DNA of 64,000 nt from a virus, in the IMG/VR virus record IMGVR_UViG_3300045988_166882; one strand, 5' to 3'. Positions 10,977 to 64,000 of this stretch are shown here, in pieces (the stretch's first letter is position 1; the number at the start of each line of letters is the position of its first letter). Under the pieces are notes generated by a model. It saw only the letters and a list, made by a program, of their open reading frames with translations, made no database searches and had not been told where the DNA came from. A program made the position numbers and the translations under genes.

Positions 10977-12194
10977 ATGAAGCAAGAAACCATTTCTCAG
11001 GCCGAAAAGGGCGTCAGCCGTTTCGACTTTAATATTAAACGCCGGGTTGCGTTTACGGACCGCCGAGGGTCGTTTGCGGAGGTGTACCCGTTCATCAACC
11101 AGATGATGATGGACCTCCCGTTACGCGATTCACGCGCTGGTAAGGTACGCGAACTGCTCGACGTCAAGACCATCATCAACAACCCGTACCGGCGGTGCGT
11201 CGGCGGGTACGGCCGCAACATCAATATCTTCTTCTTGCTGGCTGAGGCCATGTGGATTGCTACGGGCCGCAAGGACTTGGAGTTCCTGAAGATTTTCAAC
11301 AGCCGGATGAGCGACTTCTCGGACGACGGCGTAACGTTCCATGCTCCCTACGGTTGGCGGTTGCGTCACTGGGGTATTCCGTCTGAAGGTATGTCGCAGG
11401 ACCCCGGTCTGGATCAGGTCAAGGAAGCCGTCCGGTTGCTGGCCGCCGATCCTGAAACGCGGCAGGTGGTGATGTCGATTTGGAACCCCAAGTTTGACCT
11501 CGGCGTGAAGTCGAAGGACTTGCCGTGTAACGATATGGTGATGCTGAAACTGCGCGGTGGCAAACTCGTCACCACCGTCCAGAACCGCTCGAACGACCTT
11601 CACTGGGGGTTGCCCACGAACATCTTCCAGTTCTCGTTCCTGACGGAGGTAATGGCCCTTTGTTTGGGCGTGGAGTTAGGCGTCCAGACCCATAACTCAC
11701 AGTCGCTTCACGTCTACGAATGGAACAAAACGGCTCAGCAGATGAGCGAACTCTTCGTGTCTCACGCTACGCGCCGCAGTTTGTATTACGAAGGCGCAGT
11801 ATCGTACATGATGGACTTTAATTTTGAGTCCGAAGTGCCGGTAAACCGCCTTTGTGAAATAACGGCTTTCATGGAGGAAATGATCGGCCGCTTGTTGGTT
11901 CGTAACGTCGACGGCGGTGATCCTGACGATGAAGCCGGGTACGAGCAGTACGTGAGCGAGAAATCGACCTACTTTTGGGCCGTTTACCAGATGCTGAAAC
12001 TGTACGTGTTCTACAAGCGTAACCGCGGGGCCTGCTTGCCTGAGGACTTGGACCAGTTGTTGAATAATTGCAGCGAGATGCTGACGTTTATCAACAACGC
12101 TTGCGAAGTTGATAAGAACTGGGACTACATGATGCTGGCGCGCAACTTCTTTGCGGCAAGGTTATCTAACGCAGAACCGTGCAAAATCCTGTAA
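10977..12194 (+). CDS. ThyA-family pyrimidine C5-transferase (thymidylate synthase or dUMP hydroxymethylase), extended form
   Basis: Aligns by eye with E. coli ThyA: AEAMWIATG, HAPYGWRLRHW, DPETRQVVMSIWNP, LPCNDM (catalytic Cys), NRSNDLHWGLPTNIFQFS, SLHVY. 405 aa against about 264. Confidence 0.75.
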   Translation: MKQETISQAEKGVSRFDFNIKRRVAFTDRRGSFAEVYPFINQMMMDLPLRDSRAGKVRELLDVKTIINNPYRRCVGGYGRNINIFFLLAEAMWIATGRKDLEFLKIFNSRMSDFSDDGVTFHAPYGWRLRHWGIPSEGMSQDPGLDQVKEAVRLLAADPETRQVVMSIWNPKFDLGVKSKDLPCNDMVMLKLRGGKLVTTVQNRSNDLHWGLPTNIFQFSFLTEVMALCLGVELGVQTHNSQSLHVYEWNKTAQQMSELFVSHATRRSLYYEGAVSYMMDFNFESEVPVNRLCEITAFMEEMIGRLLVRNVDGGDPDDEAGYEQYVSEKSTYFWAVYQMLKLYVFYKRNRGACLPEDLDQLLNNCSEMLTFINNACEVDKNWDYMMLARNFFAARLSNAEPCKIL

Positions 12195-16698: not shown

Positions 16699-17349
16699 AT
16701 GGAAAACAAAGGGGATTTAGTCAAACTATTCAACCGTGATTATTTGGCGCGGTTGGATAACATTAAGCAGTGGCTGGAGTACGACCGCCACCAGCAGGAA
16801 AGCGTTTCACAACATTCGTACAAGGTGTCGGTCTTCGCGATGAGTATCATGGACTATTTCTGGCCCGTGGGGACTGAAAACGCCGAGGTGTTGAGGTTCA
16901 AATACCAGACGTTGAAGATGGCCCTGATGCACGACTTCGATGAAGCCATATTGCGCCGTGACATCACTCACGAAGTCAAATACAACGCCTACAACGGTTT
17001 CGAAGTGCGGAACGTATTGGACAGGTTCGTCGAACATCAGTTGTACGAGGAATTCGGCGAAGAATCGGATGTTGTAAAAACGCTTTCTAAAGATTGGGAG
17101 CATTACGACGTCGCTCACGCCATCGTGAAAGTAGCTGACTGGATGGCGTTGTTGTATTTTCTGAACCGCGAACTGGCTATCGGCAACCGCTCGTGGCCTT
17201 TGAACCTACTGCCCTATTGCAAGGACAATTACCGAAAAGCAATTTCAACGTTACAGGATACGTGCGTGGTTTTGGGTGTGTGTGACACGCCGCATCCGCT
17301 GTATGTAGCTTGTAACGACATCAGCGATCTTAAACTTAATATTGTCTAA
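16699..17349 (+). CDS. HD-domain phosphohydrolase (YfbR-like 5'-deoxynucleotidase type)
   Basis: H...HD...D pattern: SQHSYKVSVFAMSI ... LMHDFDEAILRRDITHE. Confidence 0.6.
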   Translation: MENKGDLVKLFNRDYLARLDNIKQWLEYDRHQQESVSQHSYKVSVFAMSIMDYFWPVGTENAEVLRFKYQTLKMALMHDFDEAILRRDITHEVKYNAYNGFEVRNVLDRFVEHQLYEEFGEESDVVKTLSKDWEHYDVAHAIVKVADWMALLYFLNRELAIGNRSWPLNLLPYCKDNYRKAISTLQDTCVVLGVCDTPHPLYVACNDISDLKLNIV

Positions 17350-46360: not shown

Positions 46361-49078
46361 ATGATGCCTCAAATTGCGATCCCGTCGTTGACGCACCGTT
46401 TGGCTTGTTTAGACCTCGTTGACGAGATAATCGAGGGTATGGACGAACGCGGCCTTAACGAGATGATGAGTGGCGATACACACGACGTTGACACGATATT
46501 TGATGCTTTGATGATGGACACGTACCGGATTATGTATACTGGCGACGTGTCGATTGATTTTAAGCCCCGCTATGAAGAGAACGTCTCGGCCGTGGTTGAA
46601 GACACCCTGCGGTGTGCCAATTTGACGTATTTCATCACCTCCGTCATCCCGGACTTCCAGCTGTCGTGGCACCACTTGGAGTGGGGTGAGTTAGTCCACA
46701 ACCACAAGAAATTGTGTATCAACGCAGCACGTGACCACGGGAAGTGTGAAGCCGTCGGAACCCCTGTCCGGATGTACGACGGAACTATCAAAAAGGTCGA
46801 AGACGTTGTGGTTGGCGACTTGTTGATGGGCGTCGACTCTAAGCCCCGCCGCGTGGTTGCTACGCGCCGTGGCCACGATTCGATGATGTACCGTATCGAC
46901 CAGTCGCGCGGTGATAGCTACACCGTCAACTCACGCCACATTTGTACGCTGATCGAGAAGGACCGCAACGGTTCCATCGCTACAGCGTCGAAGCGGATAG
47001 TGGATATTGATATTCCGACGCTTTTAAGCAAGACCCCGAACTGGGTGAAGGAACGTTACCGCGGTTTCAAGGTGGCAGTGCAGTACCCCACGCGGCCCGT
47101 GGGGTTGGAACCATATTTTCTTGGGTACTGGTTAGGCGACGGCAACTCCAACAACCAGAAGATCACCACCGCCGACCCTGAAGTGTGTGAGTACTTACAC
47201 TCTTACGCCGAGCGCTTGGGGCTTCACTATGGCCAAAATGGTATGGTAGTGACACTTGGAATTGACGTTCGTGGCCGCGGTAAGCGTAACCCGCTGGAAA
47301 GGATGCTCAAGGGTTACAACCTGCTCTACAATAAGCACATTCCGGAGCAGTACCTCGTCAACAGCGAAGAAGTTCGTCTTCAGGTGTTGGCTGGGTTGAT
47401 CGATTCCGACGGTAACTATTGGCAGGGCGGCTATCACTTCGGTAATACGAACTACCAGTTGGTGTGTGACGTGAAGAACTTGGCCGACAGCCTTGGCTTC
47501 TGTACCCGAATGGGTGGTGGAACGCGGTATTGTAAAGCGTTAGGCCGCGACTATTCGTCGTGGTGCGTGACTATTTCTGGTGAACTGGACCGCATCCCAG
47601 TAAAGATCGCTCGTAAAAAGGTCCAAACCGACTGGGCCGCCAAGACGTCACACAAGGACTGGGGCACTATCGACGGCGTACACCCTACGGTGGTATCGTC
47701 GTTGAAGATCACGCCCGCGGGTGAAGGTGACTACATATCTATCACCACCGACGGCGACCACCGCTTCGTGCTGGGTGACGGTACGGTTACGCACAACTCG
47801 TTCTATTTCTCCAACGCCTACGCCGCGTGGCAATTATACCGCTATAAGAAGCCGTCAACGACCCGTTACTCGAAGCGTCCCACGGTAGCGTCGTCGAATC
47901 GCGGCTTCTTGTTTTCGTTCTCACTCCAGCAGAGCGTTGACCTCTTGGAGATTCTGAAAGGAACCATCGAGGAAAACGAGATTTTGAAGGAACGCCTGCT
48001 ACCCCAGTCCACGGCCAACAACTGGTCGGCTACCAATATCGTGTGCCGTAACGGCGCGCGTTTGACGGGTAAGGGTTTTGGGTCTTCGGTGCGTGGTGCT
48101 CACCCCTACTGGATTATCGTCGATGACGGCCTGAAGGACAACGTCATCTATTCCAGCCTCCAGCGAAATAAGTCTACCGACTATTTCCATTCCGTAATTA
48201 TGAATATGCTCGTACCCGGCGGCCAGATCGTTGTCGTCGGTACGCCGTTCCACGCCGAGGACCTTTACGGCGACCTCAAGACCAAGAACGGTTGGTTCGT
48301 GATCGAGTACCCAGCCATCTTCCCCGACGGGCGAATCCTTTGGCCGCAGCGTTGGTCGTTTAAGGACCTGATGGACAAAAAGGAGACCCAAGGCTCGATC
48401 ATCTTCTCGCGTGAGAACCTTTGCCGCCCGATCACCAACGAATCGTCGATCTTCCCGATGGAAATCCTCACTCGGTCGTTGCTGCGTATGGAGAACTACA
48501 CGTTGGTGGATTCACGCGAAGAGTTCCCCGTTAAGTTCTCCAAGGTAGTCGTGGGCTGTGACTTCGCTATGTCGGCCAACGTCGGTGCTGACTACGCCGT
48601 ATTCAGCGTGTGGGGTATTGACGAACTGACCGACGAGCGTTGGCTGCTTCACCTGTGGCGTGAAAAGGGTGCCAAGTTCTTCGAACAGATGAACGTCCTG
48701 CGCCGTATCAACTCGCGTTTCCGGCCCGACCTGATCGTGATGGAGAACAACACCTTCCAGCAGATATTCGTCGAAACGGCCGACACTGAGGGTATGCCCG
48801 TGATTGGCCACACTACGGGAATTGATAAGTACGACCTGAAGACGGGGTGGCCTCACCTGTCGACGCTATTCGAGCGGGGCAAAATCCACATCCCGGTGGG
48901 TAACGTCTACTCTCAGCAGGTGAAAGACCTCATCTTCCAAGACCTCGGTTCAGTGGCCTTCACCGAAAAAGGCTTGGAAAGCGTGGGCAGCCACGACGAT
49001 ATTTCGTCGTCGTTCTGGTTGGCTGACTTGGCCGCTTCGCGTATGACTACGGGCTTTAAGTTTGATATGTTAGGTTAG
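46361..49078 (+). CDS. terL: terminase large subunit containing an intein
   Basis: Extein Walker A AARDHGK|S (interrupted by the intein), Walker B PYWIIVDDG, VVVGTPFH, and nuclease motif VVGCDFAMS...DYAVFSVWG. Confidence 0.85.
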   Translation: MMPQIAIPSLTHRLACLDLVDEIIEGMDERGLNEMMSGDTHDVDTIFDALMMDTYRIMYTGDVSIDFKPRYEENVSAVVEDTLRCANLTYFITSVIPDFQLSWHHLEWGELVHNHKKLCINAARDHGKCEAVGTPVRMYDGTIKKVEDVVVGDLLMGVDSKPRRVVATRRGHDSMMYRIDQSRGDSYTVNSRHICTLIEKDRNGSIATASKRIVDIDIPTLLSKTPNWVKERYRGFKVAVQYPTRPVGLEPYFLGYWLGDGNSNNQKITTADPEVCEYLHSYAERLGLHYGQNGMVVTLGIDVRGRGKRNPLERMLKGYNLLYNKHIPEQYLVNSEEVRLQVLAGLIDSDGNYWQGGYHFGNTNYQLVCDVKNLADSLGFCTRMGGGTRYCKALGRDYSSWCVTISGELDRIPVKIARKKVQTDWAAKTSHKDWGTIDGVHPTVVSSLKITPAGEGDYISITTDGDHRFVLGDGTVTHNSFYFSNAYAAWQLYRYKKPSTTRYSKRPTVASSNRGFLFSFSLQQSVDLLEILKGTIEENEILKERLLPQSTANNWSATNIVCRNGARLTGKGFGSSVRGAHPYWIIVDDGLKDNVIYSSLQRNKSTDYFHSVIMNMLVPGGQIVVVGTPFHAEDLYGDLKTKNGWFVIEYPAIFPDGRILWPQRWSFKDLMDKKETQGSIIFSRENLCRPITNESSIFPMEILTRSLLRMENYTLVDSREEFPVKFSKVVVGCDFAMSANVGADYAVFSVWGIDELTDERWLLHLWREKGAKFFEQMNVLRRINSRFRPDLIVMENNTFQQIFVETADTEGMPVIGHTTGIDKYDLKTGWPHLSTLFERGKIHIPVGNVYSQQVKDLIFQDLGSVAFTEKGLESVGSHDDISSSFWLADLAASRMTTGFKFDMLG
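46745..47797 (+). mobile_element. 351-aa intein with LAGLIDADG homing-endonuclease domain, inserted in the TerL P-loop
   Basis: Starts at Cys (CEAVGTPVRMYDG) and ends VTHN, with Ser at +1. Two LAGLIDADG motifs: YFLGYWLGDGNS and QVLAGLIDSDGNY. Confidence 0.85.
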
Positions 49079-49097: not shown

Positions 49098-49913
49098 ATG
49101 AAAACTCTGATAGCACTATTCACCCGCGGTCGTATCGATCGCCAAAAGACCCTCCAACGGCTCACGCCTCAGGCGCGCCGCCGCGTGACGGTATTCTGTC
49201 ACCCCGGCGAGTTGGCTGCTCACCAGCGTAACTGGGGCGGTGAGGTTGCCGCCATCGAGGAATACAGCACTGCGTGTCGCGGCGTGGGGGACATACGGGA
49301 CTACATCGTTGTAGAGGCCCAAAAGCGGGGATTTGGCGGAGTCTTTTTCTTAGACGATAACGTGTCTTTCTCGCTGCGTTTAGACGATGCCAAGACCCCC
49401 GTGGTGGTAAACAACGACAATTTCACCGTCGAGGCCCAAGAATACATCTATTCGATGATGTTCGACTGGGTGGCGGAGCACTTGGACACCTACGCCGTCG
49501 CCGCGCTTTCGTATCGGCCCTTTAACCGCGACAAGGAACACGACGTACAAATCAACGGGCGATTCTTCTCCATTTGGGGACTGAACATCGCCCAGTACCT
49601 CAGCCAGCCCGTGAGGTTTCGCGATTGGCCTATCAAGGAAGACTTCGCCGTGGCTTGCGGTTTACGCCGCGCCGGGCTGGATAACGTGGTGTCGTACCAG
49701 TATTCGTTCGACAAGATGACCGGAGCCAACGCCGCTGGCGGTTGTTCCGTGTACCGCACTATCGAGAACTCCAACGCCGAGTCACAACGTTTAAGGGAAG
49801 AGTTCCCCGAATATATCACCCTTCGTACCAAGAAATGTACCAATTGGGGGGGTGAAATGAAGGACCGTGAAATGATTGAAGTTAAAATACACTTAAAAGG
49901 TTACAAGAAATGA
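49098..49913 (+). CDS. hypothetical protein; weak GT-A-type glycosyltransferase-like features
   Basis: N-terminal strand TLIALFTRGR and an acidic VFFLDDNVSF (DxD-like). No firm family recognition. Confidence 0.3.
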   Translation: MKTLIALFTRGRIDRQKTLQRLTPQARRRVTVFCHPGELAAHQRNWGGEVAAIEEYSTACRGVGDIRDYIVVEAQKRGFGGVFFLDDNVSFSLRLDDAKTPVVVNNDNFTVEAQEYIYSMMFDWVAEHLDTYAVAALSYRPFNRDKEHDVQINGRFFSIWGLNIAQYLSQPVRFRDWPIKEDFAVACGLRRAGLDNVVSYQYSFDKMTGANAAGGCSVYRTIENSNAESQRLREEFPEYITLRTKKCTNWGGEMKDREMIEVKIHLKGYKK

Positions 49914-50473
49914 TCGTAAAATTCAAGAAAGTACACCCCGACGCCGTACTGCCGCACTACGCTCACCCCGACGGTGAGGACAACGGACTGGACTTGGTTG
50001 CCGCAGCCGTTTTCGAGTCCGACGACTACATCGAGTACGACACAGGTATCGCCGTTGAAATCCCCAAGGGGTACTGCGGCCTGTTGGTCCCGAATTCACG
50101 TTGTTCGAAAAAGGACCTCGTGATGTGTAACGCGCCGGGTATCATCGACCCCGGATATCGCGGTACGATGCGTGCCCGCTACAAGAAGGTTTGGCACCTT
50201 CCGACGCTGCTCCATAAGTTCCTCCGCAGCGTGTGTACGTTGTTCTCGAACGCCTTCGGTGAAATAGCCGGGTTGCGTGCACAGGAAATCAATTTCGACG
50301 TCAAGCAGTTTGAGGTCGGTGAGGTAGTGGCCCAGTTGGTTATCATCCCCGCGCCGCAGATCGAGGTTGAGGAAACTGACACGCTGACGCCTTCGATGCG
50401 TGACACCGCGGGGTTCGGTTCGACGGTAAAAGCGGTTCCCGAGAGCGAACGTGTTCAAAATGCCGAAAAATAG
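49910..50473 (+). CDS. dut: trimeric dUTPase with an internal ~40-aa insertion
   Basis: NGLDLVAA, PNSRCS, GIIDPGYRG and a C-terminal RDTAGFGST. Extra segment KKVWHLPTLLHKFLRSVCTLFSNAFGEIAGLRAQEINF. Confidence 0.8.
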   Translation: MIVKFKKVHPDAVLPHYAHPDGEDNGLDLVAAAVFESDDYIEYDTGIAVEIPKGYCGLLVPNSRCSKKDLVMCNAPGIIDPGYRGTMRARYKKVWHLPTLLHKFLRSVCTLFSNAFGEIAGLRAQEINFDVKQFEVGEVVAQLVIIPAPQIEVEETDTLTPSMRDTAGFGSTVKAVPESERVQNAEK

Positions 50474-50654: not shown

Positions 50655-51242
50655 ATGAAAACGATCCTCCAACACAACCCCGCCAAACAGGACAACGTCG
50701 AAGCCATGGCCGACGCGCTGGTAGAGTCGATGCGCTTCGCTGACCCTACGGTTGATTATCCTGATATCTCCAAGGCCAAAGCCGACGACGGCGTTCCGGC
50801 CGAGTGGTTCCACAAGGCATACGCCGGCATTACCGGTACGTCGGAACTCACGGCCATTCTTCAGTACACGCAGCAGCGGATGATTTTTGACCAGATTGGA
50901 GAAACGTTCCTCGGTATCGCCCTCACCGAGATGAAGCACTACGACCGATTAGGCGACTTCATCGACCATATCGGGGGCAGCGTATCGCGGCCCGTATTTT
51001 CGGCAGCCAAAGTGGACATTACGACCGAAAGCGCGGCCGAAGCCGTCCAGATCAACATCCGCGCCGAGCAGGACACCATCGCCGAGTACGAGAAACTCAT
51101 TCAGCGTATTCAGGCCAACAACCCTACGCCGACCGTTACATCCACGCTGGCGGTTCAACTTATCAACAAAATCATCGCCGACGAGCGCGTCCACGTGCGG
51201 TTGTTGAGTGAATTGGCGATTATGATCGATGAAACGTTATGA
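50655..51242 (+). CDS. ferritin-like di-metal carboxylate protein (Mn-catalase/CotJC-like)
   Basis: ELTAILQYTQQ plus two ExxH motifs (EMKHYDRL and DERVHVRL). Confidence 0.5.
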   Translation: MKTILQHNPAKQDNVEAMADALVESMRFADPTVDYPDISKAKADDGVPAEWFHKAYAGITGTSELTAILQYTQQRMIFDQIGETFLGIALTEMKHYDRLGDFIDHIGGSVSRPVFSAAKVDITTESAAEAVQINIRAEQDTIAEYEKLIQRIQANNPTPTVTSTLAVQLINKIIADERVHVRLLSELAIMIDETL

Positions 51243-51535
51243 TATCCGCCACCGCTTACCGAAGGTGCCGTGCGCTGTTGCTGGCCGCGGTGAAGAATAT
51301 CGAAGCCGAACGCCCAGGAGTTATCGCCTGGGCGTCTCGTCAAGAACGGTGGTGGGAAGTGTGCGTGAGTGACTACGCGCTCTACCGCAGCGAACAATTT
51401 GCGCTGATACGGTCGGTGTACCGTAAGGCCATTTATGCCGCTGGCGGCGGTAAGGTGATATTCTGCTACGCCAAGCCCGACGCCGAACGGTTGTACGAGT
51501 TGGAGTTGAAAGGTAATTTGGTGATGGATTGTTGA
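51239..51535 (+). CDS. hypothetical protein
   Basis: 98-aa ORF with an ATGA overlap. Confidence 0.5.
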   Translation: MISATAYRRCRALLLAAVKNIEAERPGVIAWASRQERWWEVCVSDYALYRSEQFALIRSVYRKAIYAAGGGKVIFCYAKPDAERLYELELKGNLVMDC

Positions 51536-51549
51536 AAAATTTCTTCAAA

Positions 51550-51585
51550 TTCTCTTGGAGAATTCAAATTTTCGCCGTACCTTCG
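51550..51585 (+). promoter_or_regulatory. Bacteroidota sigma-A-type promoter, cassette copy P4
   Basis: TTCTCTT, 21 nt, then TACCTTCG (51578-51585). Shares a 23-mer with P3. Confidence 0.6.
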
Positions 51586-51617
51586 CTCTTGGAAAGAATC
51601 GTAAAACAAAATTGGTT

Positions 51618-52445
51618 ATGGAAAACACTCAAGACATCAACTCAATCCTCGCGAAACTGAAGAAACTGCAGCGTCTGTACGAAGGCGCCAAGGCCATCAA
51701 TTCTGAAGCCGAAGCCCAAAATGCTGCTGTTAAGATTCAGAACCTCCTCACCCAGTACAACCTTTCGATGGCTGATTTGGAAGCCGTGCCCGACAACGAG
51801 CAGAAGACCAACGTAACCGAAGAGCGCTTGGGTAGCGATTGGTGGCGTAAGTGCGGCGGCGCGTGGGACCAAGTCCTTATCGCTGGAATCTGTAAGTACA
51901 ACTACTGCTACGCTATCACAAGTCAGAGCGTGCGCTACCGTATCAACCGCAACGGCAACGAGGTACGCGAAAAGACTCAAAAGTACATCATCATCGGCGA
52001 ACCTCAGAACGTCGAGGTCGTAAAGTGGCTGTTCAACATTTTGGCGGACCAATTGTATAAACTGGCGCTGAAACGTTACCAAGAGTACCTCAACGACGAC
52101 GGTCAGGCCGTGATGCGTGTGTTCATGGGCGAAAAGCGGATGCACCGCGGTACGTTCTTGCGGTCGTATTTGACCGGAGCCGCCATTGGCGTTAAGGCCA
52201 AACTGAAGGAAGAGCGTGAACGCGAACTCCAAGCCCAAGTTCAGGTAAGCGCGCTGGTGCTTCGTACGGACCAGAAATTGAACGACTACGTGGCTGAGAA
52301 TTACAAGGACTTACGCTCGTCGCGTCCGGGACATATCGGTAGTGGCCACGCTATGGCGATGGGGCGTGAAGATGGCCGCAAGGTTAATATAACCCGCGGC
52401 GGTATCGCTGCTTCGAATACCAACTCTAACCAGATAGCGCAATGA
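51618..52445 (+). CDS. DUF2786-like phage protein
   Basis: N-terminal ILAKLKKLQRLYEGAKAINSEAEAQNAAVKIQNLLTQYNL matches the DUF2786 helix pattern from memory. ATG at 51618 (the track start is a TTG inside the promoter). Confidence 0.5.
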   Translation: MENTQDINSILAKLKKLQRLYEGAKAINSEAEAQNAAVKIQNLLTQYNLSMADLEAVPDNEQKTNVTEERLGSDWWRKCGGAWDQVLIAGICKYNYCYAITSQSVRYRINRNGNEVREKTQKYIIIGEPQNVEVVKWLFNILADQLYKLALKRYQEYLNDDGQAVMRVFMGEKRMHRGTFLRSYLTGAAIGVKAKLKEERERELQAQVQVSALVLRTDQKLNDYVAENYKDLRSSRPGHIGSGHAMAMGREDGRKVNITRGGIAASNTNSNQIAQ

Positions 52446-53434
52446 AAATAAACCTCGTATTTGACGGGAATTTCCTGTACCACCTTTCGTTCTCGATCTT
52501 CTCGACGTACTACCGCGGTCAAGATATGTGCGCTGTACTCGAAGACCGTGAAAAGCGTCAGGTGCTGATCCGCAAGTGCGTGATGAACCTTTGCGCCGCG
52601 GTACGGCGTTTTGGTGATGACGTTGGTCGCGTGATAGTGGTCATCGACTCCCACTCGTGGCGCCGCGGCGTATACGACGACTACAAGTACGCCCTGACGC
52701 GGGTGAAAGAACCGTGGAGCGACGCATTCGTCGAAGTGTTGGGTGAGTTTGAAGCGTTGCTGCGTAAACGCGGGCTGATCGTTTCGCGTGTACCGGGCGC
52801 AGAGGGTGATGACCTGATTATGTTGTGGGCCTACGCGCTGGACGAACTCCCCGGCGAAGAAACCGTCATCCTCACGGCCGACAGCGACATCCGCCAGTTG
52901 ATCACGCCAACGGTTTCGGTATTCAACTACAACTCCAAGTTCATGAAATTCTACACCTTCCCCGGTAAGGAAGAGTTCTGGAACGAACGGCTGGATGCCG
53001 ACATTCAGGTCCTCGCCACCGAAGCGTTGGAGGTGTTGTTGTTTAAGGTGCTGATGGGCGATACGTCAGACAACATCCCCAAGGTTCGCCGCGGTTTTGG
53101 CGAAAAGGCGTTTGGCCGTTTCATCGAATCGCTGAAGCCGGAACTCAACGGCCGACTGGTATCGCCGTCGGCCTTCGAGGGGTACAGCAGTACCAAGTTG
53201 GCACTTTGGATTCAGTCCAAGTTTGAGCGTTTCTTGGGCAGCCCGCTGACGACGGAAGAGGTAGGGCGCATCCTTTTCAACGTCCAGTTGACTTGGCTGT
53301 CGCCGTCGGTTTACGGCCCCAAGCAGGAAGACCTGCTGATGGCGATGACCGAAGAGGTAGCCAACACGAAGGACTCCTACAACTATAAAAAGGCGTATAC
53401 GCTGGAAGACTTCTACGGAATGTTGATAAAGTGA
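52442..53434 (+). CDS. FEN-type 5'-3' exonuclease (T4 RNase H-like)
   Basis: LVFDGNF, VIDSHSWRR...YKYALTR, GAEGDDLI, TADSDIRQL, LMGDTSDNIP. Confidence 0.8.
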   Translation: MKINLVFDGNFLYHLSFSIFSTYYRGQDMCAVLEDREKRQVLIRKCVMNLCAAVRRFGDDVGRVIVVIDSHSWRRGVYDDYKYALTRVKEPWSDAFVEVLGEFEALLRKRGLIVSRVPGAEGDDLIMLWAYALDELPGEETVILTADSDIRQLITPTVSVFNYNSKFMKFYTFPGKEEFWNERLDADIQVLATEALEVLLFKVLMGDTSDNIPKVRRGFGEKAFGRFIESLKPELNGRLVSPSAFEGYSSTKLALWIQSKFERFLGSPLTTEEVGRILFNVQLTWLSPSVYGPKQEDLLMAMTEEVANTKDSYNYKKAYTLEDFYGMLIK

Positions 53435-53452
53435 TTAAAATCAAGATACGCT

Positions 53453-53653
53453 ATGAAGAAATGGATGTGGATTCTTATCACCGCGGTGGTCCTTGTGATT
53501 GCCGCGGTGGTGTACGCTCATGAGGCGAAGATTATCCACACGCTGGTAGCCATCTTCTCGTTTGTAGCGGGAGTAGTGGCTCACTGGGCGTGGGTAAAGT
53601 ATTTGGCCGCGAAGGCCGTTAAACAGGACAACAACGATGGAAAACATTCGTGA
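53453..53653 (+). CDS. two-TM small membrane protein
   Basis: WILITAVVLVIAAVVY and LVAIFSFVAGVVAHWAW. Confidence 0.5.
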   Translation: MKKWMWILITAVVLVIAAVVYAHEAKIIHTLVAIFSFVAGVVAHWAWVKYLAAKAVKQDNNDGKHS

Positions 53654-54314
53654 CATCATCCTCGGCGCTCGTGCTCAGCGTCAGGATCACATGCTGAAAG
53701 GCTTCGCCCCGGTCCCTGAAGACATTGAGGAGGGTGAAAAGGTCGAGAAGGCCGACAACGTCTTTGAGAAGATGGCCGACGCCATCGAAAAGGCTGAGTC
53801 GGACGACGCCGAGGAAGCCCTCCAAGGCGAGATTCAGAAATCGGACATCATGCAGGCCATCAGCGGTTACGGCTCGGAAATCAAGTTCAGCCGCTTGGGG
53901 AAGGAAATCAAGGCTAAACTGAAGGCTGATATTCTTCCGCCGTTGAACGCCAAACTGCAGGTCCTTACCGCCGAACTGGAAAGCCTTTTGGGTAACTGCG
54001 GCGGTGCGCCTACCGAAACCGTTCCGCCGTGGTATACGGCCGAGATCAAGATGGACGTTCCGTTCCGGCTGTTCAGCTGGGAAGAAACCAGTGACCGTGA
54101 AGCCCCTGCGCTGGCTGGTACGCTGGTCGACAACCAAACCGAAAACGCCGTAACGCCCGAAATGTACAAGTGCCGGCGTGACTACAACGAAAAGGTTCGT
54201 GACTACGCCAACGTGGCTACCGATATCAAGGCGTGCGAGATTCTCGACACCAACCTCTCCGACAACGAACGTTACCAGCTGTCGCCTCGGCAGTTGACGA
54301 TGTTCGGATTCTAA
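53637..54314 (+). CDS. hypothetical acidic protein
   Basis: 225-aa ORF followed by a terminator. Confidence 0.55.
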   Translation: MENIRDIILGARAQRQDHMLKGFAPVPEDIEEGEKVEKADNVFEKMADAIEKAESDDAEEALQGEIQKSDIMQAISGYGSEIKFSRLGKEIKAKLKADILPPLNAKLQVLTAELESLLGNCGGAPTETVPPWYTAEIKMDVPFRLFSWEETSDREAPALAGTLVDNQTENAVTPEMYKCRRDYNEKVRDYANVATDIKACEILDTNLSDNERYQLSPRQLTMFGF

Positions 54315-54356
54315 ACCTCTTTTCTGTTTCCATTTTGTCAGGTTTGTTAGGACAGC

Positions 54357-54393
54357 GGCCCCGATTCGTAAGCGTTTCGGGGCCAACGTTTTT
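54357..54393 (+). terminator. rho-independent terminator
   Basis: GGCCCCGA (54357-54364) pairs with TCGGGGCC (54377-54384), followed by AACGTTTTT. Confidence 0.7.
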
Positions 54394-54399
54394 GAGCGT

Positions 54400-54714
54400 A
54401 TGGACCGATGGAGATATTTCAAAATAGGTGATATCGTCACCGACCCCGAAGTGTGGGGAAAGACGATGTTCGTAATACGCACGCTGCACGGTAACGACTA
54501 CTGCCCGCTGATCAGTGGCGAGTCCCTAAAACCGATCCGCGGTCGCCGTATAAGGGTAAACCTCGGCGTGGGGGAGACGCGTCTTGTAAACGCTCCTAAA
54601 CGTCCGTTGATGAAGATTCCCGACGGTACGTTGGTGCGGTTAGCTGGAAAGAGCGTTGAAGCGCGGCGCGAATTGTTAATTAGAAGCTATCGTAAACAAT
54701 ATGGCAACGTTTGA
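54400..54714 (+). CDS. hypothetical protein
   Basis: 104-aa ORF. Confidence 0.5.
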   Translation: MDRWRYFKIGDIVTDPEVWGKTMFVIRTLHGNDYCPLISGESLKPIRGRRIRVNLGVGETRLVNAPKRPLMKIPDGTLVRLAGKSVEARRELLIRSYRKQYGNV

Positions 54715-55711
54715 CCATTATGCTTGGGCTGATAAACTACCCGACGCGTCGCTCGACGTGAGCGCAGAACACCACACGGAGTTCTTCCGGACGATGTTCG
54801 AGCGTCAGATGATATGGAAACGGCGGTTCTTAGATCAGGCTCCGCGCCCGTGGACTGAAGACCCCATACTACGCGACTACAAGTTTACCAACGTCTACCG
54901 CGAACTGGACCGAAACTCCCAGTGGCAAATACGTAATATCCTACTCGATGACGGGTTGACGCTGGCGAATCTGGTGTGGAAGATGATGGTGTTCCGCTAT
55001 TTCAACAATCCCGCCACGTTCGAATACGCTCGCGAAAAGTACGGTTGGGGAGCCGGCATCCCGGATCACGACCAATACGACGAAGACCTCTTTGCCGAGA
55101 TGATAACGTCGTACCGCGCTACGGGTAACAATCCCTATACTACGGCGTATCTGATCAATTCGATGGCCACGCCCGGTAAGCCGCGCGACTACTGCTACAC
55201 GCACTTGGTCGTCCCGACGCTTCACCGTCGGTTAGGCGAACTGATGCGGACGGTGTTGACGGCTGACACTCCGGAGCAGATCATCAAGTTCCTTCAGAGC
55301 CTTCCTTCATCGGCGACGTTTATCGCTCACGAATTCTACCAAGACTTCACCTACATACCGCGTTACACCTATCGCCGTTTTATGCGTTTCACCCAAGACG
55401 ACTACACCAACGTCGGTCCCGGCGCGTCCATAGGGCTGCGGCTGGTGTTTCCGTCGTTGAAGTGCCAAATTGACGGTATCTACCGTTTGCGTGACGAAGC
55501 CCGCGAGGCTCTTCAGCAGTGTGGAGACTTTCCATACCTACATTGGGATCGCGCAGGGCGTTGCTACCGGGTGTCGCGCTGCGGCGACGTGACGCTTCAT
55601 CAAGTTGAGATGTGGCTGTGTGAGTACCAGAAGTACTGGAAGATGAAGATCGGCGAAGGGAAGCAACGCTCAATCTTCGAACCGCGAACTCGTAAAATTG
55701 TAGGCCAATGA
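54701..55711 (+). CDS. 5-hmdU DNA kinase helical-domain family protein (DNA base hypermodification candidate)
   Basis: FERQMIWKRRFLDQAPRPWTEDPILRDYKFTNVYRELDRNSQW matches, from memory, the ERQ..RR...PWT.DPIL...FTN.YR..DR.SQ signature of the HMUDK_hel family. No P-loop. Confidence 0.45.
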   Translation: MATFDHYAWADKLPDASLDVSAEHHTEFFRTMFERQMIWKRRFLDQAPRPWTEDPILRDYKFTNVYRELDRNSQWQIRNILLDDGLTLANLVWKMMVFRYFNNPATFEYAREKYGWGAGIPDHDQYDEDLFAEMITSYRATGNNPYTTAYLINSMATPGKPRDYCYTHLVVPTLHRRLGELMRTVLTADTPEQIIKFLQSLPSSATFIAHEFYQDFTYIPRYTYRRFMRFTQDDYTNVGPGASIGLRLVFPSLKCQIDGIYRLRDEAREALQQCGDFPYLHWDRAGRCYRVSRCGDVTLHQVEMWLCEYQKYWKMKIGEGKQRSIFEPRTRKIVGQ

Positions 55712-56031
55712 TCACGTTCCACACCCCGTTGGAAACGGGCGAGTTTATGGGCATCGACTTTCAGGTGATGGCCGATGACCTTTCAACCAGTGCCGCACGA
55801 TTAGTAGTCGTCGGCACTTTCATATCACCCCTTACCGTTGAAGAGAAATCACACCTCCAAGACCTCGTTCACTTAATCCGCCGCGACGGTGAGTGGAACG
55901 GTTCGTATGACGACCAGACGGACTACTACTCATGGAACGGTCATCAGGTAGCAGTTTGGGGCGATATCATCCATCAGGCTATCATCATACGCAAGACGGC
56001 CCGCAACGACTTTTTGAATCTGTTGAGTTGA
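55708..56031 (+). CDS. hypothetical protein
   Basis: 107-aa ORF with an ATGA overlap. Confidence 0.5.
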   Translation: MITFHTPLETGEFMGIDFQVMADDLSTSAARLVVVGTFISPLTVEEKSHLQDLVHLIRRDGEWNGSYDDQTDYYSWNGHQVAVWGDIIHQAIIIRKTARNDFLNLLS

Positions 56032-56068
56032 CAGCCAATTATAGCTTAACAAATCGCATAAAAACATT

Positions 56069-57829
56069 ATGTCCGGTGTAAAAGAAAGATTGGAATCGGT
56101 AGAACGCGCCATGCAGGCTCTCACGATACGTAAATCGTTGTTGATGGAGCGAGCGTTGCGCAGCGACAACCCGTCCGACATACTCAAAGCCGCTGAGATA
56201 TTCAATCAGCAATCCAAGCCCGCTAACGTTGCTCCGAAGGCGTACCTGATCGACCCTTTGGAGTTCAATTCGTTTTTGGGCTATAAGGATAAGCCGTTTT
56301 CGCTTTCGTACGAAACGCTCCGCCGGATGAGCCGCACCCCCATCATCAACTCAATCCTCAAGACCCGTAAGAACCAGATAGCCGACTTCGCTGAACCGCA
56401 GGCCGACCGCTATTCGACGGGCTTCGTGATTCGCCGTAAGCCCAAGCACGGCCAAGAGCAGAAGATGGATTCACAGGACCGCAAGATCGCGTCTTCCATC
56501 ACCGACTTCATCCTCAACTGCGGCGATACCGCTACGTGGGACGGCGACGAGTTTGATGAGTTTATTCGTAAAATCGTTGACGACTCGTTGACGTTCGACC
56601 AGATGACGTTCGAGTGTATCCGGAACCGCCGCGGCAAACTGGTACGCTTTCAGGCCGTGGACGCCGCTACGTTCCGTCTTGCGGAATCGTACTTCGACGG
56701 CGAGTACAACAACCCGTACTTCGACGGCGCCATGACCGACGATCGCCAAAATTGGGGTCCCAAGGTCGACGGCTATTATCCGGCCTACGTTCAGGTGTAC
56801 CAAACAGCCAAGGTGGCGCAGTTCTATCCGTGGGAGTTGTGCTTCGGTATTCGCAATCCGACCACGTCGATCTACGCCAACGGCTACGGCAACTCAGAGT
56901 TGGAAGAGTTGATCAACGTGGTCACGTCGATGCTTTGGGGTGATGAATACAACCGCCGTTTCTTCTCACAAGGTTCTGCGCCGAAGGGTCTGCTCCGCAT
57001 CAAGGGTAACGTCAACGAGGCGTCACTCCAGCAGTTCAAGCAGCAGTGGCAGGCCATGATATCCGGCGTTATGCAGTCGTGGAAGACGCCCGTCGTTGAG
57101 GGCGATATCGACTGGGTTGACCTCCAGAAGAACAACCGCGACATGGAGTACAACTCTTGGATGGAGTACCTGATCAAGATCGCGTGCGCCGTATTCTGTA
57201 TTGACCCCACGGAAATCGGCTGGGATATTTCACGCTCCAACGGCAGCGGCCTTACCTTCGGCGACGGCCAAAAGCAGCGCATGGAGCAATCGAAAGACAA
57301 GGGTCTCTACCCGATGCTGAAATTCATCCAGCGTAAGATCAACAAATTCATCGTCGAGCAGATCAACCCCGACTTCGAGTTTGTGTTCATGGGCCTCAAC
57401 GGTATGACCATCTCCGAGGAATTGGAGATGGACATCAAACGCCTCCAAGCCTTCCAGACCGTGGACGAGATTCGCGAGAAGTGGGACCTCCCGGCTATCG
57501 GCGAAGAAAAGGGTGGCGATACCATCGAGAACGCCGTCATCCAGCAAGCACTCAGCGCCAAGCAACAGCAGCAACAGGCGATGGGTGGTATGGGCGGCGG
57601 CAACCCGTTCGAAGAGGCTGCGGGTATGGGTATGGAAGTCGCGGGTGGCCCGGCTGATGAACCTGTGGCTGGCGGCGAAGGTGAGGAAGACGATGAAGCG
57701 CAGGCCGGCAACCCGTTCGATCTCTACGCCCAAGGCGACGAAGAAGAAACTATGAAGGCCCGTGAGGCAAATCCGCTCGTGGCCGCATTCGATGAATACT
57801 TACAAAAAGCAATAAACCATGACGAGTAA
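56069..57829 (+). CDS. portal protein
   Basis: 586 aa. RRFFSQGSAPKGLLRIKGNVNEASLQQFKQQWQ...WKTPVVEGDIDWVDLQ...FCIDPTEIG resembles the HK97-type portal core. Q/G-rich and acidic tail. Confidence 0.7.
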   Translation: MSGVKERLESVERAMQALTIRKSLLMERALRSDNPSDILKAAEIFNQQSKPANVAPKAYLIDPLEFNSFLGYKDKPFSLSYETLRRMSRTPIINSILKTRKNQIADFAEPQADRYSTGFVIRRKPKHGQEQKMDSQDRKIASSITDFILNCGDTATWDGDEFDEFIRKIVDDSLTFDQMTFECIRNRRGKLVRFQAVDAATFRLAESYFDGEYNNPYFDGAMTDDRQNWGPKVDGYYPAYVQVYQTAKVAQFYPWELCFGIRNPTTSIYANGYGNSELEELINVVTSMLWGDEYNRRFFSQGSAPKGLLRIKGNVNEASLQQFKQQWQAMISGVMQSWKTPVVEGDIDWVDLQKNNRDMEYNSWMEYLIKIACAVFCIDPTEIGWDISRSNGSGLTFGDGQKQRMEQSKDKGLYPMLKFIQRKINKFIVEQINPDFEFVFMGLNGMTISEELEMDIKRLQAFQTVDEIREKWDLPAIGEEKGGDTIENAVIQQALSAKQQQQQAMGGMGGGNPFEEAAGMGMEVAGGPADEPVAGGEGEEDDEAQAGNPFDLYAQGDEEETMKAREANPLVAAFDEYLQKAINHDE

Positions 57830-58076
57830 CGAGAAGAACACCGCGCCCATCGTACAGCTGTTGGCTGACGCTATGCCCAAGCCTATCATCGACGCTTCTG
57901 GCGGCAGCGTGATCTACCGCGGCTATGCCCCCATTGGTACGGGTCAAGGTGAGGCCGGGTGGCGCATCGAGCGTGAGACCACCGCCAACGGCATCACCAT
58001 CACCGAATACCCCATCGGCGACATGAGTTACAATTTCGTGTGGGCCGACCGCGCTACCTACGTATATTCACGCTAA
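57819..58076 (+). CDS. hypothetical virion-module protein
   Basis: 85-aa ORF. Confidence 0.5.
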   Translation: MTSNEKNTAPIVQLLADAMPKPIIDASGGSVIYRGYAPIGTGQGEAGWRIERETTANGITITEYPIGDMSYNFVWADRATYVYSR

Positions 58077-58089
58077 ACCGAAACGCACA

Positions 58090-59712
58090 ATGGCAACTAT
58101 TGACGTCGGAACTGTAGCAGGTATATCCATCGGAACGACACCTCCGTCGAATCCGGCGATTATCTGGTACGACACCACCGACAAACTCCACAAGAACTAC
58201 GACGCCTCACTCGGGCAGTGGATTCCGATGTCGCAGGCGATTGTGTCCGAAATAGGCGATTTTAACGACCTTATCAATAAAGCGAACCTTCCGGGCGGCT
58301 TACCTATCGCTGCGTTCTACAATGTCCTGAAACGCGACGCTGACGCCCAGTGGAACACCATGGTCTGGGTGGTGGGGCAAACGCGCATCCAGTACGTCGA
58401 TAAACTCAACAACATCATCGTTGAAGACTTGGCTGGTCAAGGTACTACGACGCAGTATGTGGCATCGACCAACTACTTCTTCGACAACATCGTCGCTACG
58501 TTCGACCAAAAGACCTCGAAACTCAACTACACGTTCCAGCAACTGACCGACAATCCGGCCCTTGCAGACGTGTTGTACGGCATGCGGGTCATCAACAACA
58601 TTCCTACGTTGGTGAAGCGGACGGTGAAGTCGCTGTTGTCTAATTCGAGTAAGAACTCGTTAGGGTTCGTCAATGGCTTGTACTTCGACTTCAGCGCAGC
58701 GATGAACGGCGTTATCGTCTCTGAACAGGCGGGCGATACCCAAGTCCCCGGCTACAAGCAATACAAGGCCGATTATGCAGCCATCGAAAAGGCTTTTGAG
58801 GACGTCAGCAAGATCATCAACGACTGGCAGAACGGGTCTCAACAGATGATCTTTGGCGCCAAGTTGATCGAGGTTAATCCCGTAACGGCTACGGTGGCCA
58901 CGCCTCAGGACCTGACTACGCAGGACGATTTGAAGACGGCCCTCAACAAGATACAAGGCTGGTACAACCGTCTGAAATTGGCTACCGGCATGACCCTTTC
59001 GTCGGATTATGTCAAGGCACCATCTAAGACCCGTTATCCGCAAGGAGGCGATACCGTCCAGCAGGCAATAGCTATCCTTCATAAATTCGTTGAGGATTTT
59101 GACGGTAAGGCTACAAATGTCGTCGTTGGTGGTAGCGAAGGCGACTTCCCTGCCAGCCCTAACCCTTCGTATCAGATCAAGCCAACCGACAGCCTGTATC
59201 AGGCCGTTGCTAAGATCGTCAACAACTTGGCGTCGCTGTTTGGCGGTGGAGTGAGTGATGCAGCCTATTTGGCTGATAATTTCGTACGTACCCAGAGTAT
59301 TCGCCCCAAAGCAGTCAACTCCCTGAAGATATCGGACGAACTCCACGACGCAATATTCTGTCACACGTACAATCCTGTTGATTGGAGCGGTGATGACACT
59401 ACCAACTTCATGCTGGAGCCGGGGTGTATGTTCGACGCTATCAATTCCCCGCTGACGCTCATCGACCCGGTTCTTTCTGAAGCGGACGTTTTCCCGCCTA
59501 AAATGTGGGATACCTACGTGCGCATGAAATCGAACCAGACTTTCAAGGCCCCGACGGGTTCGGCTCTGGGCATCACCGTCAGCGCCGTTTATACGAATCA
59601 GTTAGGATCGGGCGACCGTAAACTTGTCCACGTTAGGTTCATTCCCGCGGCTCGCACTCCAACGACTGGTTTCTTCTTTGTTACGACGTATTTGTTTTCA
59701 AGTCAAGCCTAA
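58090..59712 (+). CDS. structural protein, fibre-like N-terminus
   Basis: N-terminal GTTPPSNPAIIWYDTTDKLHKNYDASLGQWIPM resembles the conserved tail-fibre N-terminal motif. Confidence 0.5.
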   Translation: MATIDVGTVAGISIGTTPPSNPAIIWYDTTDKLHKNYDASLGQWIPMSQAIVSEIGDFNDLINKANLPGGLPIAAFYNVLKRDADAQWNTMVWVVGQTRIQYVDKLNNIIVEDLAGQGTTTQYVASTNYFFDNIVATFDQKTSKLNYTFQQLTDNPALADVLYGMRVINNIPTLVKRTVKSLLSNSSKNSLGFVNGLYFDFSAAMNGVIVSEQAGDTQVPGYKQYKADYAAIEKAFEDVSKIINDWQNGSQQMIFGAKLIEVNPVTATVATPQDLTTQDDLKTALNKIQGWYNRLKLATGMTLSSDYVKAPSKTRYPQGGDTVQQAIAILHKFVEDFDGKATNVVVGGSEGDFPASPNPSYQIKPTDSLYQAVAKIVNNLASLFGGGVSDAAYLADNFVRTQSIRPKAVNSLKISDELHDAIFCHTYNPVDWSGDDTTNFMLEPGCMFDAINSPLTLIDPVLSEADVFPPKMWDTYVRMKSNQTFKAPTGSALGITVSAVYTNQLGSGDRKLVHVRFIPAARTPTTGFFFVTTYLFSSQA

Positions 59713-59723
59713 AATGGTATCGT

Positions 59724-61340: not shown

Positions 61341-61343
61341 CGA

Positions 61344-61379
61344 TTCTCTTGGCAGTTTGGAGAAAATTCAGTACTTTTG
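61344..61379 (+). promoter_or_regulatory. Bacteroidota sigma-A-type promoter, cassette copy P5
   Basis: TTCTCTT, 21 nt, then TACTTTTG (a perfect TAnnTTTG at 61372-61379). Confidence 0.65.
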
Positions 61380-61412
61380 TAGTGGAAATGAAACTTATAA
61401 ACCTATAACACC

Positions 61413-63908: not shown

Positions 63909-63917
63909 CAACGCGAA

Positions 63918-64000
63918 ATGGAACATTGTTTAACATCCACCGGAACCCCTACGCGGGCCGAAAAAGTGTTGGAGAATACGTTCAATGAAAGCGAGCCTAT
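63918..64000 (+). CDS. hypothetical protein, 5' fragment (runs off the window)
   Basis: ATG at 63918; the frame is open to the window end. Confidence 0.35.
   Translation, partial: MEHCLTSTGTPTRAEKVLENTFNESEP

Follow-up and report, generated by a model that had tools for sequence, protein, structure and literature searches.

An open reading frame (ORF) at positions 54701-55711 of a 64,000-nucleotide stretch of viral DNA (IMG/VR record IMGVR_UViG_3300045988_166882, analyzed over its whole length and hereafter called the window) encodes a stand-alone member of the HMUDK_hel family (Pfam PF18723, aGPT-Pplase clade 1), and it is an ordinary member of this curated family. The initial annotation of the window had read the protein as an enzyme that phosphorylates 5-hydroxymethyl-2'-deoxyuridine (5-hmdU) already present in DNA. 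Judged from its sequence and its structural model the protein is not a kinase, and its conserved residues point to a Cys-dependent enzyme. The same genome encodes a predicted dUMP hydroxymethylase and two predicted TET-associated glycosyltransferases (TAGTs), while neither a kinase for 5-hmdU in DNA (5-HMUDK) nor an amino acid:DNA transferase (ADDT) was detected. We give about an even chance to the reading that 5-hmdU DNA is made by this phage and then hypermodified in a kinase-independent way, glycosylation being the probable one, and that the HMUDK_hel protein is a Cys-dependent base-flipping enzyme in this process. This would be an undescribed, probably sugar-based disguise of thymine in a ~100-kb gut phage.

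Family membership of ORF 54701-55711

Membership in HMUDK_hel had been proposed from an N-terminal peptide, FERQMIWKRRFLDQAPRPWTEDPILRDYKFTNVYRELDRNSQW, which is present in the translation of the ORF, and it was borne out when the profile search was run. PF18723 matched with 170.4 bits and E = 6.9e-50 (Pfam; cutoff 25), aligning profile positions 4-279 of 281 to residues 25-320 of the ORF, a match far beyond chance. The identical protein has been called on 16 metagenome contigs by public gene callers. No second Pfam family was detected in the ORF, even at E <= 10. Among the PHROG profiles, PHROG 2396 (unknown function) matched at 6.6e-47, and PHROG 800, labeled "terminase small subunit", gave a weak partial match at 1e-06. 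NCBIfam holds no model for the HMUDK_hel family, a phmmer search of the ORF product against PDB sequences returned noise only, 10 kb of the window had no megablast match among cultured phages, and the exact-sequence look-up of two window proteins found no entry on record.

The HMUDK_hel family is distinct from the kinase

The validated 5-hmdU DNA kinases are P-loop proteins, namely M6 gp54, PaMx11 gp49, ViI gp67 and gp243, SP10 gp186, and PhiW-14 gp37 (PMC8989533, Table 1), and they are modeled by PF18748 (HMUDK_HMUD1) or by generic P-loop families. In Pfam runs on reference proteins, PaMx11 gp49 matched AAA_33 and Zeta_toxin and, weakly, PF18748, and the Nachito kinase matched PF18748. It is the gene directly downstream of each kinase that encodes the PF18723 protein (gp50 in PaMx11, 141 bits; the Nachito "aGPT-pyrophosphorylase clade 1", 169 bits), and PaMx11 gp46 matched PF18724, now named ADDT. 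PF18723 is an all-helical protein distinct from the kinase, aGPT-Pplase clade 1 being another name for the family, and the Pfam name HMUDK_hel is misleading. The name arose because the kinase and the helical domain are fused in SP10 gp186, which consists of an N-terminal kinase and a C-terminal glycosylase-like domain (PMC5889632, Table 3); the metagenomic protein P0210 is the same PF18748 + PF18723 fusion. The paralogue set in that table includes M6 gp55, ViI gp160, and PhiW-14 gp72. Since HMUDK_hel and aGPT-Pplase clade 1 are one family, the aGPT-pyrophosphorylase partner that the initial annotation had missed is in a sense ORF 54701-55711 itself.

An exhaustive search at E <= 1e-3 yielded 3,056 HMUDK_hel clusters (50% identity), and the top 150 cluster representatives were mostly of stand-alone length (~300-400 aa), with kinase fusions being rare. 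Homologues were found in 453 phage records, mostly relatives of known thymidine-hypermodifying phages, and the family occurs in the hypermodifying phages ViI, M6, SP10, and PhiW-14. Among cultured phages the HMUDK_hel and hydroxymethylase matches have a near-identical organism distribution except in Bacillus, where 6 phage records have HMUDK_hel versus 37 with the hydroxymethylase. The Bacillus phages with the hydroxymethylase only are presumably mostly SPO1-like phages with plain, unelaborated 5-hmdU. In the literature searched no function has been assigned to the family; its 2013 family-defining paper is known to us via later papers only.

Predicted structure and active site

An AlphaFold2 (AF2) model of the ORF product, built on an alignment of 71 diverse homologues (A1), had a pLDDT of 95.3 and a pTM of 0.92 and was all-helical with one small hairpin, with no Rossmann-like alpha/beta core. 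In a Foldseek search against PDB the three best matches (probability 0.89) were to PaMx11 gp46/PUGT, the glycinyltransferase acting on 5-phosphomethyl-2'-deoxyuridine (5-PmdU) (PDB 8z2m and 8z2n, the latter with bound DNA; PMC11472151), followed by the helix-hairpin-helix (HhH) DNA glycosylases EndoIII, OGG1, and AlkA and by DUF2419. In BFVD the best matches were SP10 gp186 (TM-score 0.72), a phiRSL1 protein, a PhiW-14 protein (TM-score 0.64), and "Pplase1 clade 1" proteins, with E values down to 7e-14, and an "Amino acid:DNA transferase" protein was found at rank 11 (TM-score 0.48).

All family-invariant residues (R35, N64, R67, D70, F207, G241, C307, and K311) are present in the ORF product; the same residues are invariant in alignment A1 and in six cultured-phage members, and they are identical in kinase-linked and kinase-less HMUDK_hel proteins. 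Among the 71 homologues C307 and K311 are kept in all, E308 in 70, and E303 in 65. The C-terminal motif QVEMWLCEYQKY (VExxLCE..K; QVE303-MWL-C307-E308-YQ-K311-Y) resembles EVE243-TIL-C247-KWK of gp46, and hhalign of A1 against a 36-sequence ADDT alignment (A2) placed C307 on C247 and E303 on E243, the Cys being invariant in both families. ADDTs cannot do without this Cys and a Glu close to it; attack of the Cys on C6 of the flipped base gives an exocyclic C5 methylene (PMC8989533, section 17; PMC11472151). For M6 gp51, trapping with a thiol such as beta-mercaptoethanol has been shown (PMC8989533). E222 and T223 are the active-site divalent-metal ligands of 15599 Pplase2. From the invariant residues and the ADDT-like motif we infer an active enzyme of related chemistry, not a passive domain, and by analogy with the ADDTs the ORF product is a predicted Cys-dependent enzyme.

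The likeness to HhH glycosylases also brings up a role apart from building the modification, such as a repair or host-DNA-degrading glycosylase or lyase, removal or reversion of 5-hydroxymethyluracil (5-hmU), for example by regenerating thymine, or anti-defence. After replication, part of the hmU in the DNA of phages PhiW-14 and SP10 is turned into thymine enzymatically, a conversion for which a thymidylate-synthase-like Cys mechanism could serve. We consider a role of this kind distinctly unlikely: the family tracks hypermodifying phages, not those presumed to carry plain 5-hmdU (the 6 versus 37 Bacillus records), its genes sit inside modification clusters, and there is no phosphorylated intermediate in this phage to be reduced.

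Search for a kinase and an amino acid:DNA transferase

The ORF product contains no G/AxxxxGK[ST] sequence and has no P-loop or PF18724 (ADDT) match in Pfam at E <= 10. PF18748 did not match it, though the same profile matched the Nachito kinase and P0210, and nothing significant was found between the ORF and the validated kinases (PaMx11 gp49 and homologues) by tblastn or with a 3-seed hidden Markov model (HMM).

The search was extended to the complete genome. The window is the first 64 kb of a ~101.6-kb genome type (IMGVR_UViG_3300045988_134865, ~97% identity), and its positions 51413-64000 are 100% identical to contig UMHK01041317.1 (GCA_900527225.1). The complete genome was reconstructed from the window and the 97%-identical contig, and the remaining 37 kb was walked; it is a late, structural region whose ORFs are of a size expected for capsid and tail proteins and, bar one of 581 aa, contain no Walker A motif. 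No 5-HMUDK or ADDT was found in the whole ~101.6 kb by tblastn, small profile HMMs, and Walker-A scans, nor in the window by Pfam runs on its larger ORFs and in precomputed Pfam annotations of the same or related contigs. The Walker-A scan covered all six frames of the window, of the remaining 37 kb, and of phage PhiJL001 (see below). In the present phage the motif occurs in few real genes, i.e., those of DnaB, RecA, and the 581-aa late-region ORF, which is taken to be the large terminase though it has no Pfam match; in PhiJL001 it occurs in the RecD-like exonuclease and terminase genes. About four Walker A matches are estimated to arise by chance, and the motifs in two small ORFs (32800-33372, GDDVVGKS; 35991-36542, GFRDFGKT) were judged to be such, being located mid-protein in products without Pfam or PHROG matches. 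A HipA-like kinase was also considered following the example of "Gratiaviridae" (PMC8008677), and no such domain was found in this phage.

These results bear directly on the possibility that ORF 54701-55711 is itself the 5-hmdU DNA kinase, forming 5-PmdU to which an amino acid or polyamine would be added by an unrecognized transferase. Apart from the Pfam family name and the presence of the family in ViI, M6, SP10, and PhiW-14, which speak for a kinase, the evidence points the other way: the protein has no Walker A motif or kinase-family match, an all-helical, glycosylase-like fold is modeled for it, kinase activity has been validated for separate P-loop proteins (PMC8989533), and there is no ADDT gene to make use of a phosphorylated intermediate. 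We regard this possibility as very improbable.

Putative modification genes of the phage

The coordinates of the genes discussed here are listed in Table 1. The enzyme noted earlier as a ThyA-family member does belong to the thymidylate-synthase superfamily. It is not a ThyA equivalog, all NCBIfam ThyA models being far under cutoff (73 versus 327 bits), and dUMP hydroxymethylase is its predicted activity: it retains the catalytic Cys and has Asn (in GLPTNIF) at the uracil-reading position that is occupied by Asp in CMP hydroxymethylase. Over the core it is 47% identical to SPO1 gp29, 41% to the SP-10 "dUMP hydroxymethylase", and 38-39% to PaMx11 gp51 and the Nachito homologue, and its closest cultured-phage homologues are from 5-hmdU phages. 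The HD protein, previously described as dNMP-phosphohydrolase-like, is a YfbR-like HD 5'-deoxynucleotidase that may clear canonical dTMP/dNMP pools; an HD gene follows the hydroxymethylase gene also in PaMx11 (gp52), PhiJL001 (gp25), and the Manatee Spring phage.

The ORF earlier called weakly GT-A-like gave a solid full-length TAGT match, and this protein (TAGT1), which also matched PHROG 842 "beta-glucosyl-HMC-alpha-glucosyltransferase" at 4.6e-28, is predicted to glycosylate a DNA base. The dUTPase assignment of the next gene is kept in part, given its PHROG 135 match; the NCBIfam dut model scored 73 bits, under its cutoff of 103, so the protein is best called dUTPase-like and is possibly a dUTP/dTTP pyrophosphatase. 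The cloned genes of phage 15599 for the biosynthesis of its thymine hypermodification include one for a dTTPase/dUTPase (PMC13458397).

TAGT1 is located directly downstream of a terminase-like gene and 5 kb upstream of the HMUDK_hel gene. The product of the terminase-like gene is probably an intein-containing large terminase; it carries a Hint + LAGLIDADG intein (~aa 130-383), and a terminase RNaseH-like nuclease domain was weakly matched at its C terminus. A second TAGT (TAGT2; Pfam TAGT, 52 bits) lies ~3.3 kb past the window end in a cluster with a radical-SAM/SPASM enzyme, for which there is no specific NCBIfam assignment, and an unknown protein (209 aa in the call on contig L010; 226 aa as the longest ORF in the 134865 contig); the cluster is followed by the 581-aa ORF with the Walker A motif. 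The gene set (gp29-like hydroxymethylase, HD protein, dUTPase-like protein, and TAGT) fits the replacement or hypermodification of thymidine that had been suggested initially, and its components are scattered across the genome, as had been remarked at the same time.

Table 1. Position of the HMUDK_hel gene, the putative modification genes, and adjacent packaging genes.
Feature	Position	Strand	Size and evidence
Thymidylate-synthase-superfamily enzyme, predicted dUMP hydroxymethylase (product 5-hmdUMP)	10977..12194	+	405 aa; Pfam Thymidylat_synt, 79 bits
HD-domain YfbR-like 5'-deoxynucleotidase	16699..17349	+	216 aa; Pfam YfbR-like 2e-12, HD_3; PHROG 7076
Intein-containing terminase-large-subunit-like protein	46361..49078	+	905 aa; Hom_end_hint, Hom_end, LAGLIDADG_3, weak Terminase_6C
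TAGT1 (TET-associated glycosyltransferase paralogue 1)	49098..49913	+	271 aa; PF20691, 54 bits versus cutoff 27.5, full profile
dUTPase-like protein	49910..50473	+	187 aa; start overlaps TAGT1 stop codon; PHROG 135 dUTPase, 2.7e-29
HMUDK_hel / aGPT-Pplase clade 1 protein	54701..55711	+	336 aa, ATG start; Pfam PF18723, predicted fold, conserved residues
Portal protein	56069..57829	+	Pfam Phage_portal (precomputed annotation)
Radical-SAM/SPASM enzyme, unknown protein, and TAGT2	L010 14243-16677, ~1.7-4.1 kb past window 3' end

Gene neighborhoods in relatives

The clade has 364 relatives in IMG/VR, with hundreds of sequences in some of its protein clusters. A comparison set of 80 IMG/VR loci of the clade was assembled (HMUDK_hel of at least 53% identity). 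The portal gene is found 1.3-3.6 kb downstream of the HMUDK_hel gene (start to start) in 76 of the 80 loci. This position directly upstream of the portal gene, the weak partial match to PHROG 800, and the "terminase small subunit" labels in PAKlein3, PaMx11, and Ab18 would favor a small terminase subunit. Such a function is effectively refuted: the family matched with 170 bits is one of glycosylase-like enzymes, and in PaMx11, PhiJL001, LuckyBarnes, and phiRSL1 the gene lies in a nucleotide-metabolism cluster far from the packaging genes. The label itself is an annotation error, because its bearer in PaMx11 is the validated kinase gp49 (L007 8420-8989, so labeled in RefSeq). The Ab18 orthologue of gp49 (ORF12, L170 6429-6998) is likewise labeled in RefSeq, the label in PAKlein3 sits on the HMUDK_hel gene, and PHROG 800 appears to have inherited the erroneous label.

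Two of the loci (L014 and L029) are on a 199-kb contig (IMGVR_UViG_3300029572_000001) that contains two diverged genome copies ~100 kb apart, with HMUDK_hel proteins 97% and 86% identical; two related phages have probably been joined in this assembly, by chimerism or concatenation.

No kinase or ADDT was found within 10 kb of the HMUDK_hel gene in any of the 80 loci. A TAGT was present within the same distance in 27 and directly abuts the HMUDK_hel gene in three (L077, L079, and L082). Among cultured phages, TAGT homologues were found in seven records that represent five phages only, and three of these five, PhiJL001, LuckyBarnes, and phiRSL1, carry HMUDK_hel tightly clustered with a ThyA-like hydroxymethylase. 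In PhiJL001 the cluster contains gp19 (HMUDK_hel), gp22 (TAGT), gp23 (Nmad5), gp24 (hydroxymethylase), and gp25 (HD), and no kinase or ADDT was found in the whole 63.6-kb genome. PhiJL001 and PaMx11 are syntenic members of the same phage family, and the TAGT in PhiJL001 replaces the ADDT, FAD-enzyme, acetyltransferase, and kinase genes of PaMx11. The cluster of Brevibacterium phage LuckyBarnes consists of gp41 (ThyA-like), gp40 and gp39 (TAGT), and gp38 (HMUDK_hel). In Ralstonia phage phiRSL1 (NC_010811.2), ORF237, ORF234, and ORF233 are annotated as TAGTs, two of the three being found by the TAGT profile, and ORF231 and ORF230 encode the HMUDK_hel and ThyA-like proteins. The phiRSL1 region from ORF230 to ORF238 also encodes a genuine APS kinase, a sulfotransferase, and sugar-nucleotide enzymes, with ORF236 annotated as sugar pyrophosphorylase-like (its only Pfam match being a weak one to APH) and ORF235 as a nucleotidyl transferase; this gene content predicts a sulfated glycan on 5-hmU in this jumbo phage. 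No ADDT or 5-HMUDK-type kinase was found in the 37-41 kb examined in LuckyBarnes and phiRSL1. HMUDK_hel is kept without kinase and ADDT and is paired with TAGTs, and its role is therefore separable from phosphorylation.

Such a role could still be a non-catalytic one, in which the protein binds and flips 5-hmU and presents it to the actual modifier, the P-loop kinase in M6, ViI, and SP10 and the TAGT here. The Pfam name describes a helical domain of the kinase, the protein is fused to the kinase in SP10 gp186 (PMC5889632, Table 3) and P0210 and is its direct neighbor in PaMx11 and Nachito, the modifier that accompanies it varies from phage to phage, and M6 gp55 is not needed in vitro (PMC8989533), all of which agree with an accessory. 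An invariant Cys-Glu dyad and Lys over 71 sequences, down to ~25% identity, would be unusual for a pure binding module, however, and the motif resembles the essential catalytic Cys motif of ADDT. Nor is a presenter obviously needed, in that DNA is phosphorylated by M6 gp54 on its own (PMC8989533) and a TAGT occurs without HMUDK_hel in the Manatee Spring phage. A purely accessory role is in our estimate unlikely.

Proposed pathway and points against it

The family memberships, predicted fold, conserved residues, gene content, and recurrent co-clustering described above would fit the following pathway for a Cys-dependent HMUDK_hel enzyme, in which all activities, the order of the steps, and the product are predicted. 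First, the ThyA-like enzyme, with its uracil-reading Asn, would produce 5-hmdUMP. Second, the HD nucleotidase and the dUTPase-like protein may bias the nucleotide pools, and third, the Pol III alpha-type polymerase of the phage would put 5-hmdU into DNA. Fourth, 5-hmU would be hypermodified late and on the polymer, with no phosphorylation and no amino-acid transfer, because the genome is without kinase and ADDT at the search sensitivity used; the late timing is suggested by the location of the genes in the interval from the terminase-like to the portal gene and next to a second late cluster. Fifth, the two TAGTs would add one or more sugars to the hydroxymethyl group or to the first sugar, and the adjacent radical-SAM/SPASM enzyme may tailor the product. 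Sixth, HMUDK_hel would flip the 5-substituted uracil into its glycosylase-like pocket, where Cys307 would attack C6 with Glu308 or Glu303 as the acid; judged from fold and motif, the C5 methylene carbon could thereby be activated for substitution or exchange, as in the paralogous ADDTs.

A more specific form of this proposal is that HMUDK_hel acts directly on unphosphorylated 5-hmdU and, together with the TAGTs and the radical-SAM enzyme, builds a glycosylated hypermodification, base-J-like or more elaborate, by a third route independent of kinase and ADDT that is common to PhiJL001, LuckyBarnes, phiRSL1, and the abundant ~100-kb metagenomic clade, whose hosts are probably Bacteroidota. We put this form forward tentatively, as a possibility with less than an even chance.

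Several observations weigh against the proposed pathway. Biochemical function has been demonstrated for no member of the HMUDK_hel family, and M6 gp55 is dispensable for N-alpha-glycinylthymidine formation in lysate reconstitution (PMC8989533, section 16). The profile homology between HMUDK_hel and ADDT falls short of significance (hhalign probability 2.3%, E 0.02) and the structural likeness to gp46 is modest (TM-score 0.38-0.47, Foldseek E 0.14), so the motif equivalence with ADDT rests on a short stretch, in which E303 is replaced by Q in LuckyBarnes and by S in phiRSL1. The complete Manatee Spring phage (MW202897) has TAGT, hydroxymethylase, and HD genes without HMUDK_hel, so that sugar transfer itself can probably proceed without the helical protein; a 131-aa ORF of this phage gave a weak ADDT-HMM match (E 0.003). 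The TAGT may have a substrate other than 5-hmU, a kinase that is divergent or of a non-P-loop type may have escaped the sequence searches, and the modification genes are dispersed over ~57 kb and are not operonic.

Comparison with known systems

PaMx11 gp50, the Nachito protein, and the C-terminal domain of SP10 gp186 share Pfam family (141-170 bits for gp50, Nachito, and the present ORF), fold, and invariant residues with ORF 54701-55711, and the genomes of the known members and of this phage always encode an SPO1-type dUMP hydroxymethylase. Sequence identity to these members is only ~26-28%, and unlike the PaMx11-type members the present gene is part of the packaging module, upstream of the portal gene. 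Furthermore, the known members adjoin or are fused to a P-loop kinase in genomes with an ADDT, whereas here both are absent and TAGTs are present instead. The ADDTs PaMx11 gp46, M6 gp51, and ViI gp247 (PF18724, formerly clade 2) likewise have a helical, HhH-glycosylase-like architecture and have a C-terminal motif similar to that of the ORF product, VE-x-x-L-C-x-[WFY], and a nearby Lys. ADDT needs a phosphorylated substrate, which this phage is apparently unable to make, and its reaction has been demonstrated, whereas that of the HMUDK_hel family is only predicted.

PhiJL001, LuckyBarnes, and phiRSL1 have the same three core components and the same HMUDK_hel active-site residues as the present phage. 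Their genes are tightly clustered and not dispersed as here, and there is no relation in host or virion type. An Nmad5 protein is additionally encoded in PhiJL001, and the extra genes in phiRSL1 are those for the APS kinase, the sulfotransferase, and the sugar-nucleotide enzymes. No report on the DNA chemistry of these three phages was found in the literature searched.

As in T-even glucosyl-hmC and kinetoplastid base J (glucosyl-hmU), a hydroxymethyl-pyrimidine in DNA would be the post-replication sugar acceptor, and the TAGT family is shared with T6 (the T6/T2 beta-glucosyl-HMC-alpha-glucosyltransferase; PMC13390438). The T-even base is cytosine, while the pyrimidine here is predicted to be uracil-derived from the Asn in the hydroxymethylase; the hmU of base J is formed by a JBP/TET dioxygenase, while here a ThyA homologue would supply it ahead of replication; and both the T-even and base J systems are without an HMUDK_hel protein. 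The pathway predicted from the present gene set (hydroxymethylase, HMUDK_hel, TAGTs, and radical-SAM enzyme, with no kinase or ADDT) differs from every characterized thymidine hypermodification system. No kinase-less, TAGT-linked module is described and no thymidine hypermodification in Bacteroides or gut phages is reported in the literature searched; the 2013 family-defining paper, which lies outside it, may mention some such neighborhoods.

If the proposed pathway is correct, it would represent a new chemical class, glycosylated 5-hmU formed via a nucleotide-level hydroxymethylase, and a very abundant ~100-kb phage clade would carry non-canonical DNA. This would affect restriction and CRISPR evasion, engineering, and cloning, as well as the sequencing and assembly bias of the clade in metagenomes. 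The third route, if true, would at last give a function to the HMUDK_hel family, unexplained since 2013. Because three phages with such clusters are already in culture, a clean experimental handle is available.

Host signals and other features of the genome

A Shine-Dalgarno-like 4-mer at -20 to -5 was found in 1 of the 76 plus-strand genes versus a background of 12%, and the regions upstream of start codons contain 41% A versus 26% overall. The near-absence of Shine-Dalgarno sequences and the A-rich upstream regions make the Bacteroidota host named in the initial annotation plausible, not proven. An ORF at 84-710 has a BACON-like domain just under the Pfam cutoff.

The genome is rich in selfish elements. 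Its DnaE-type Pol III alpha gene (12151-16684) is split into 12151-13899, encoding the PHP domain and N-terminal part, and 14609-16684, encoding the rest with finger and HHH_6 domains, and between the two Pol III alpha ORFs is a GIY-YIG/NUMOD3 homing-endonuclease ORF (13887-14639). Free-standing homing-endonuclease-like ORFs are found at 6933-7688 (GIY-YIG + NUMOD3) and 43558-44436 (NUMOD3 alone). ARAGORN and Rfam found a single RNA gene, a tRNA-Gln (anticodon TTG) at 43136-43207. A ferritin/rubrerythrin-like protein is encoded at 50655-51242, with the dUTPase-like gene on one side and a DUF2786/DUF7168 gene on the other. The GC-richer segment 9820-10878 (~1.1 kb), directly upstream of the ThyA-like gene, contains no plausible plus-strand ORF in a genome in which nearly all genes are on that strand; the only long ORF in the segment is on the minus strand and encodes 352 aa without a Pfam match.

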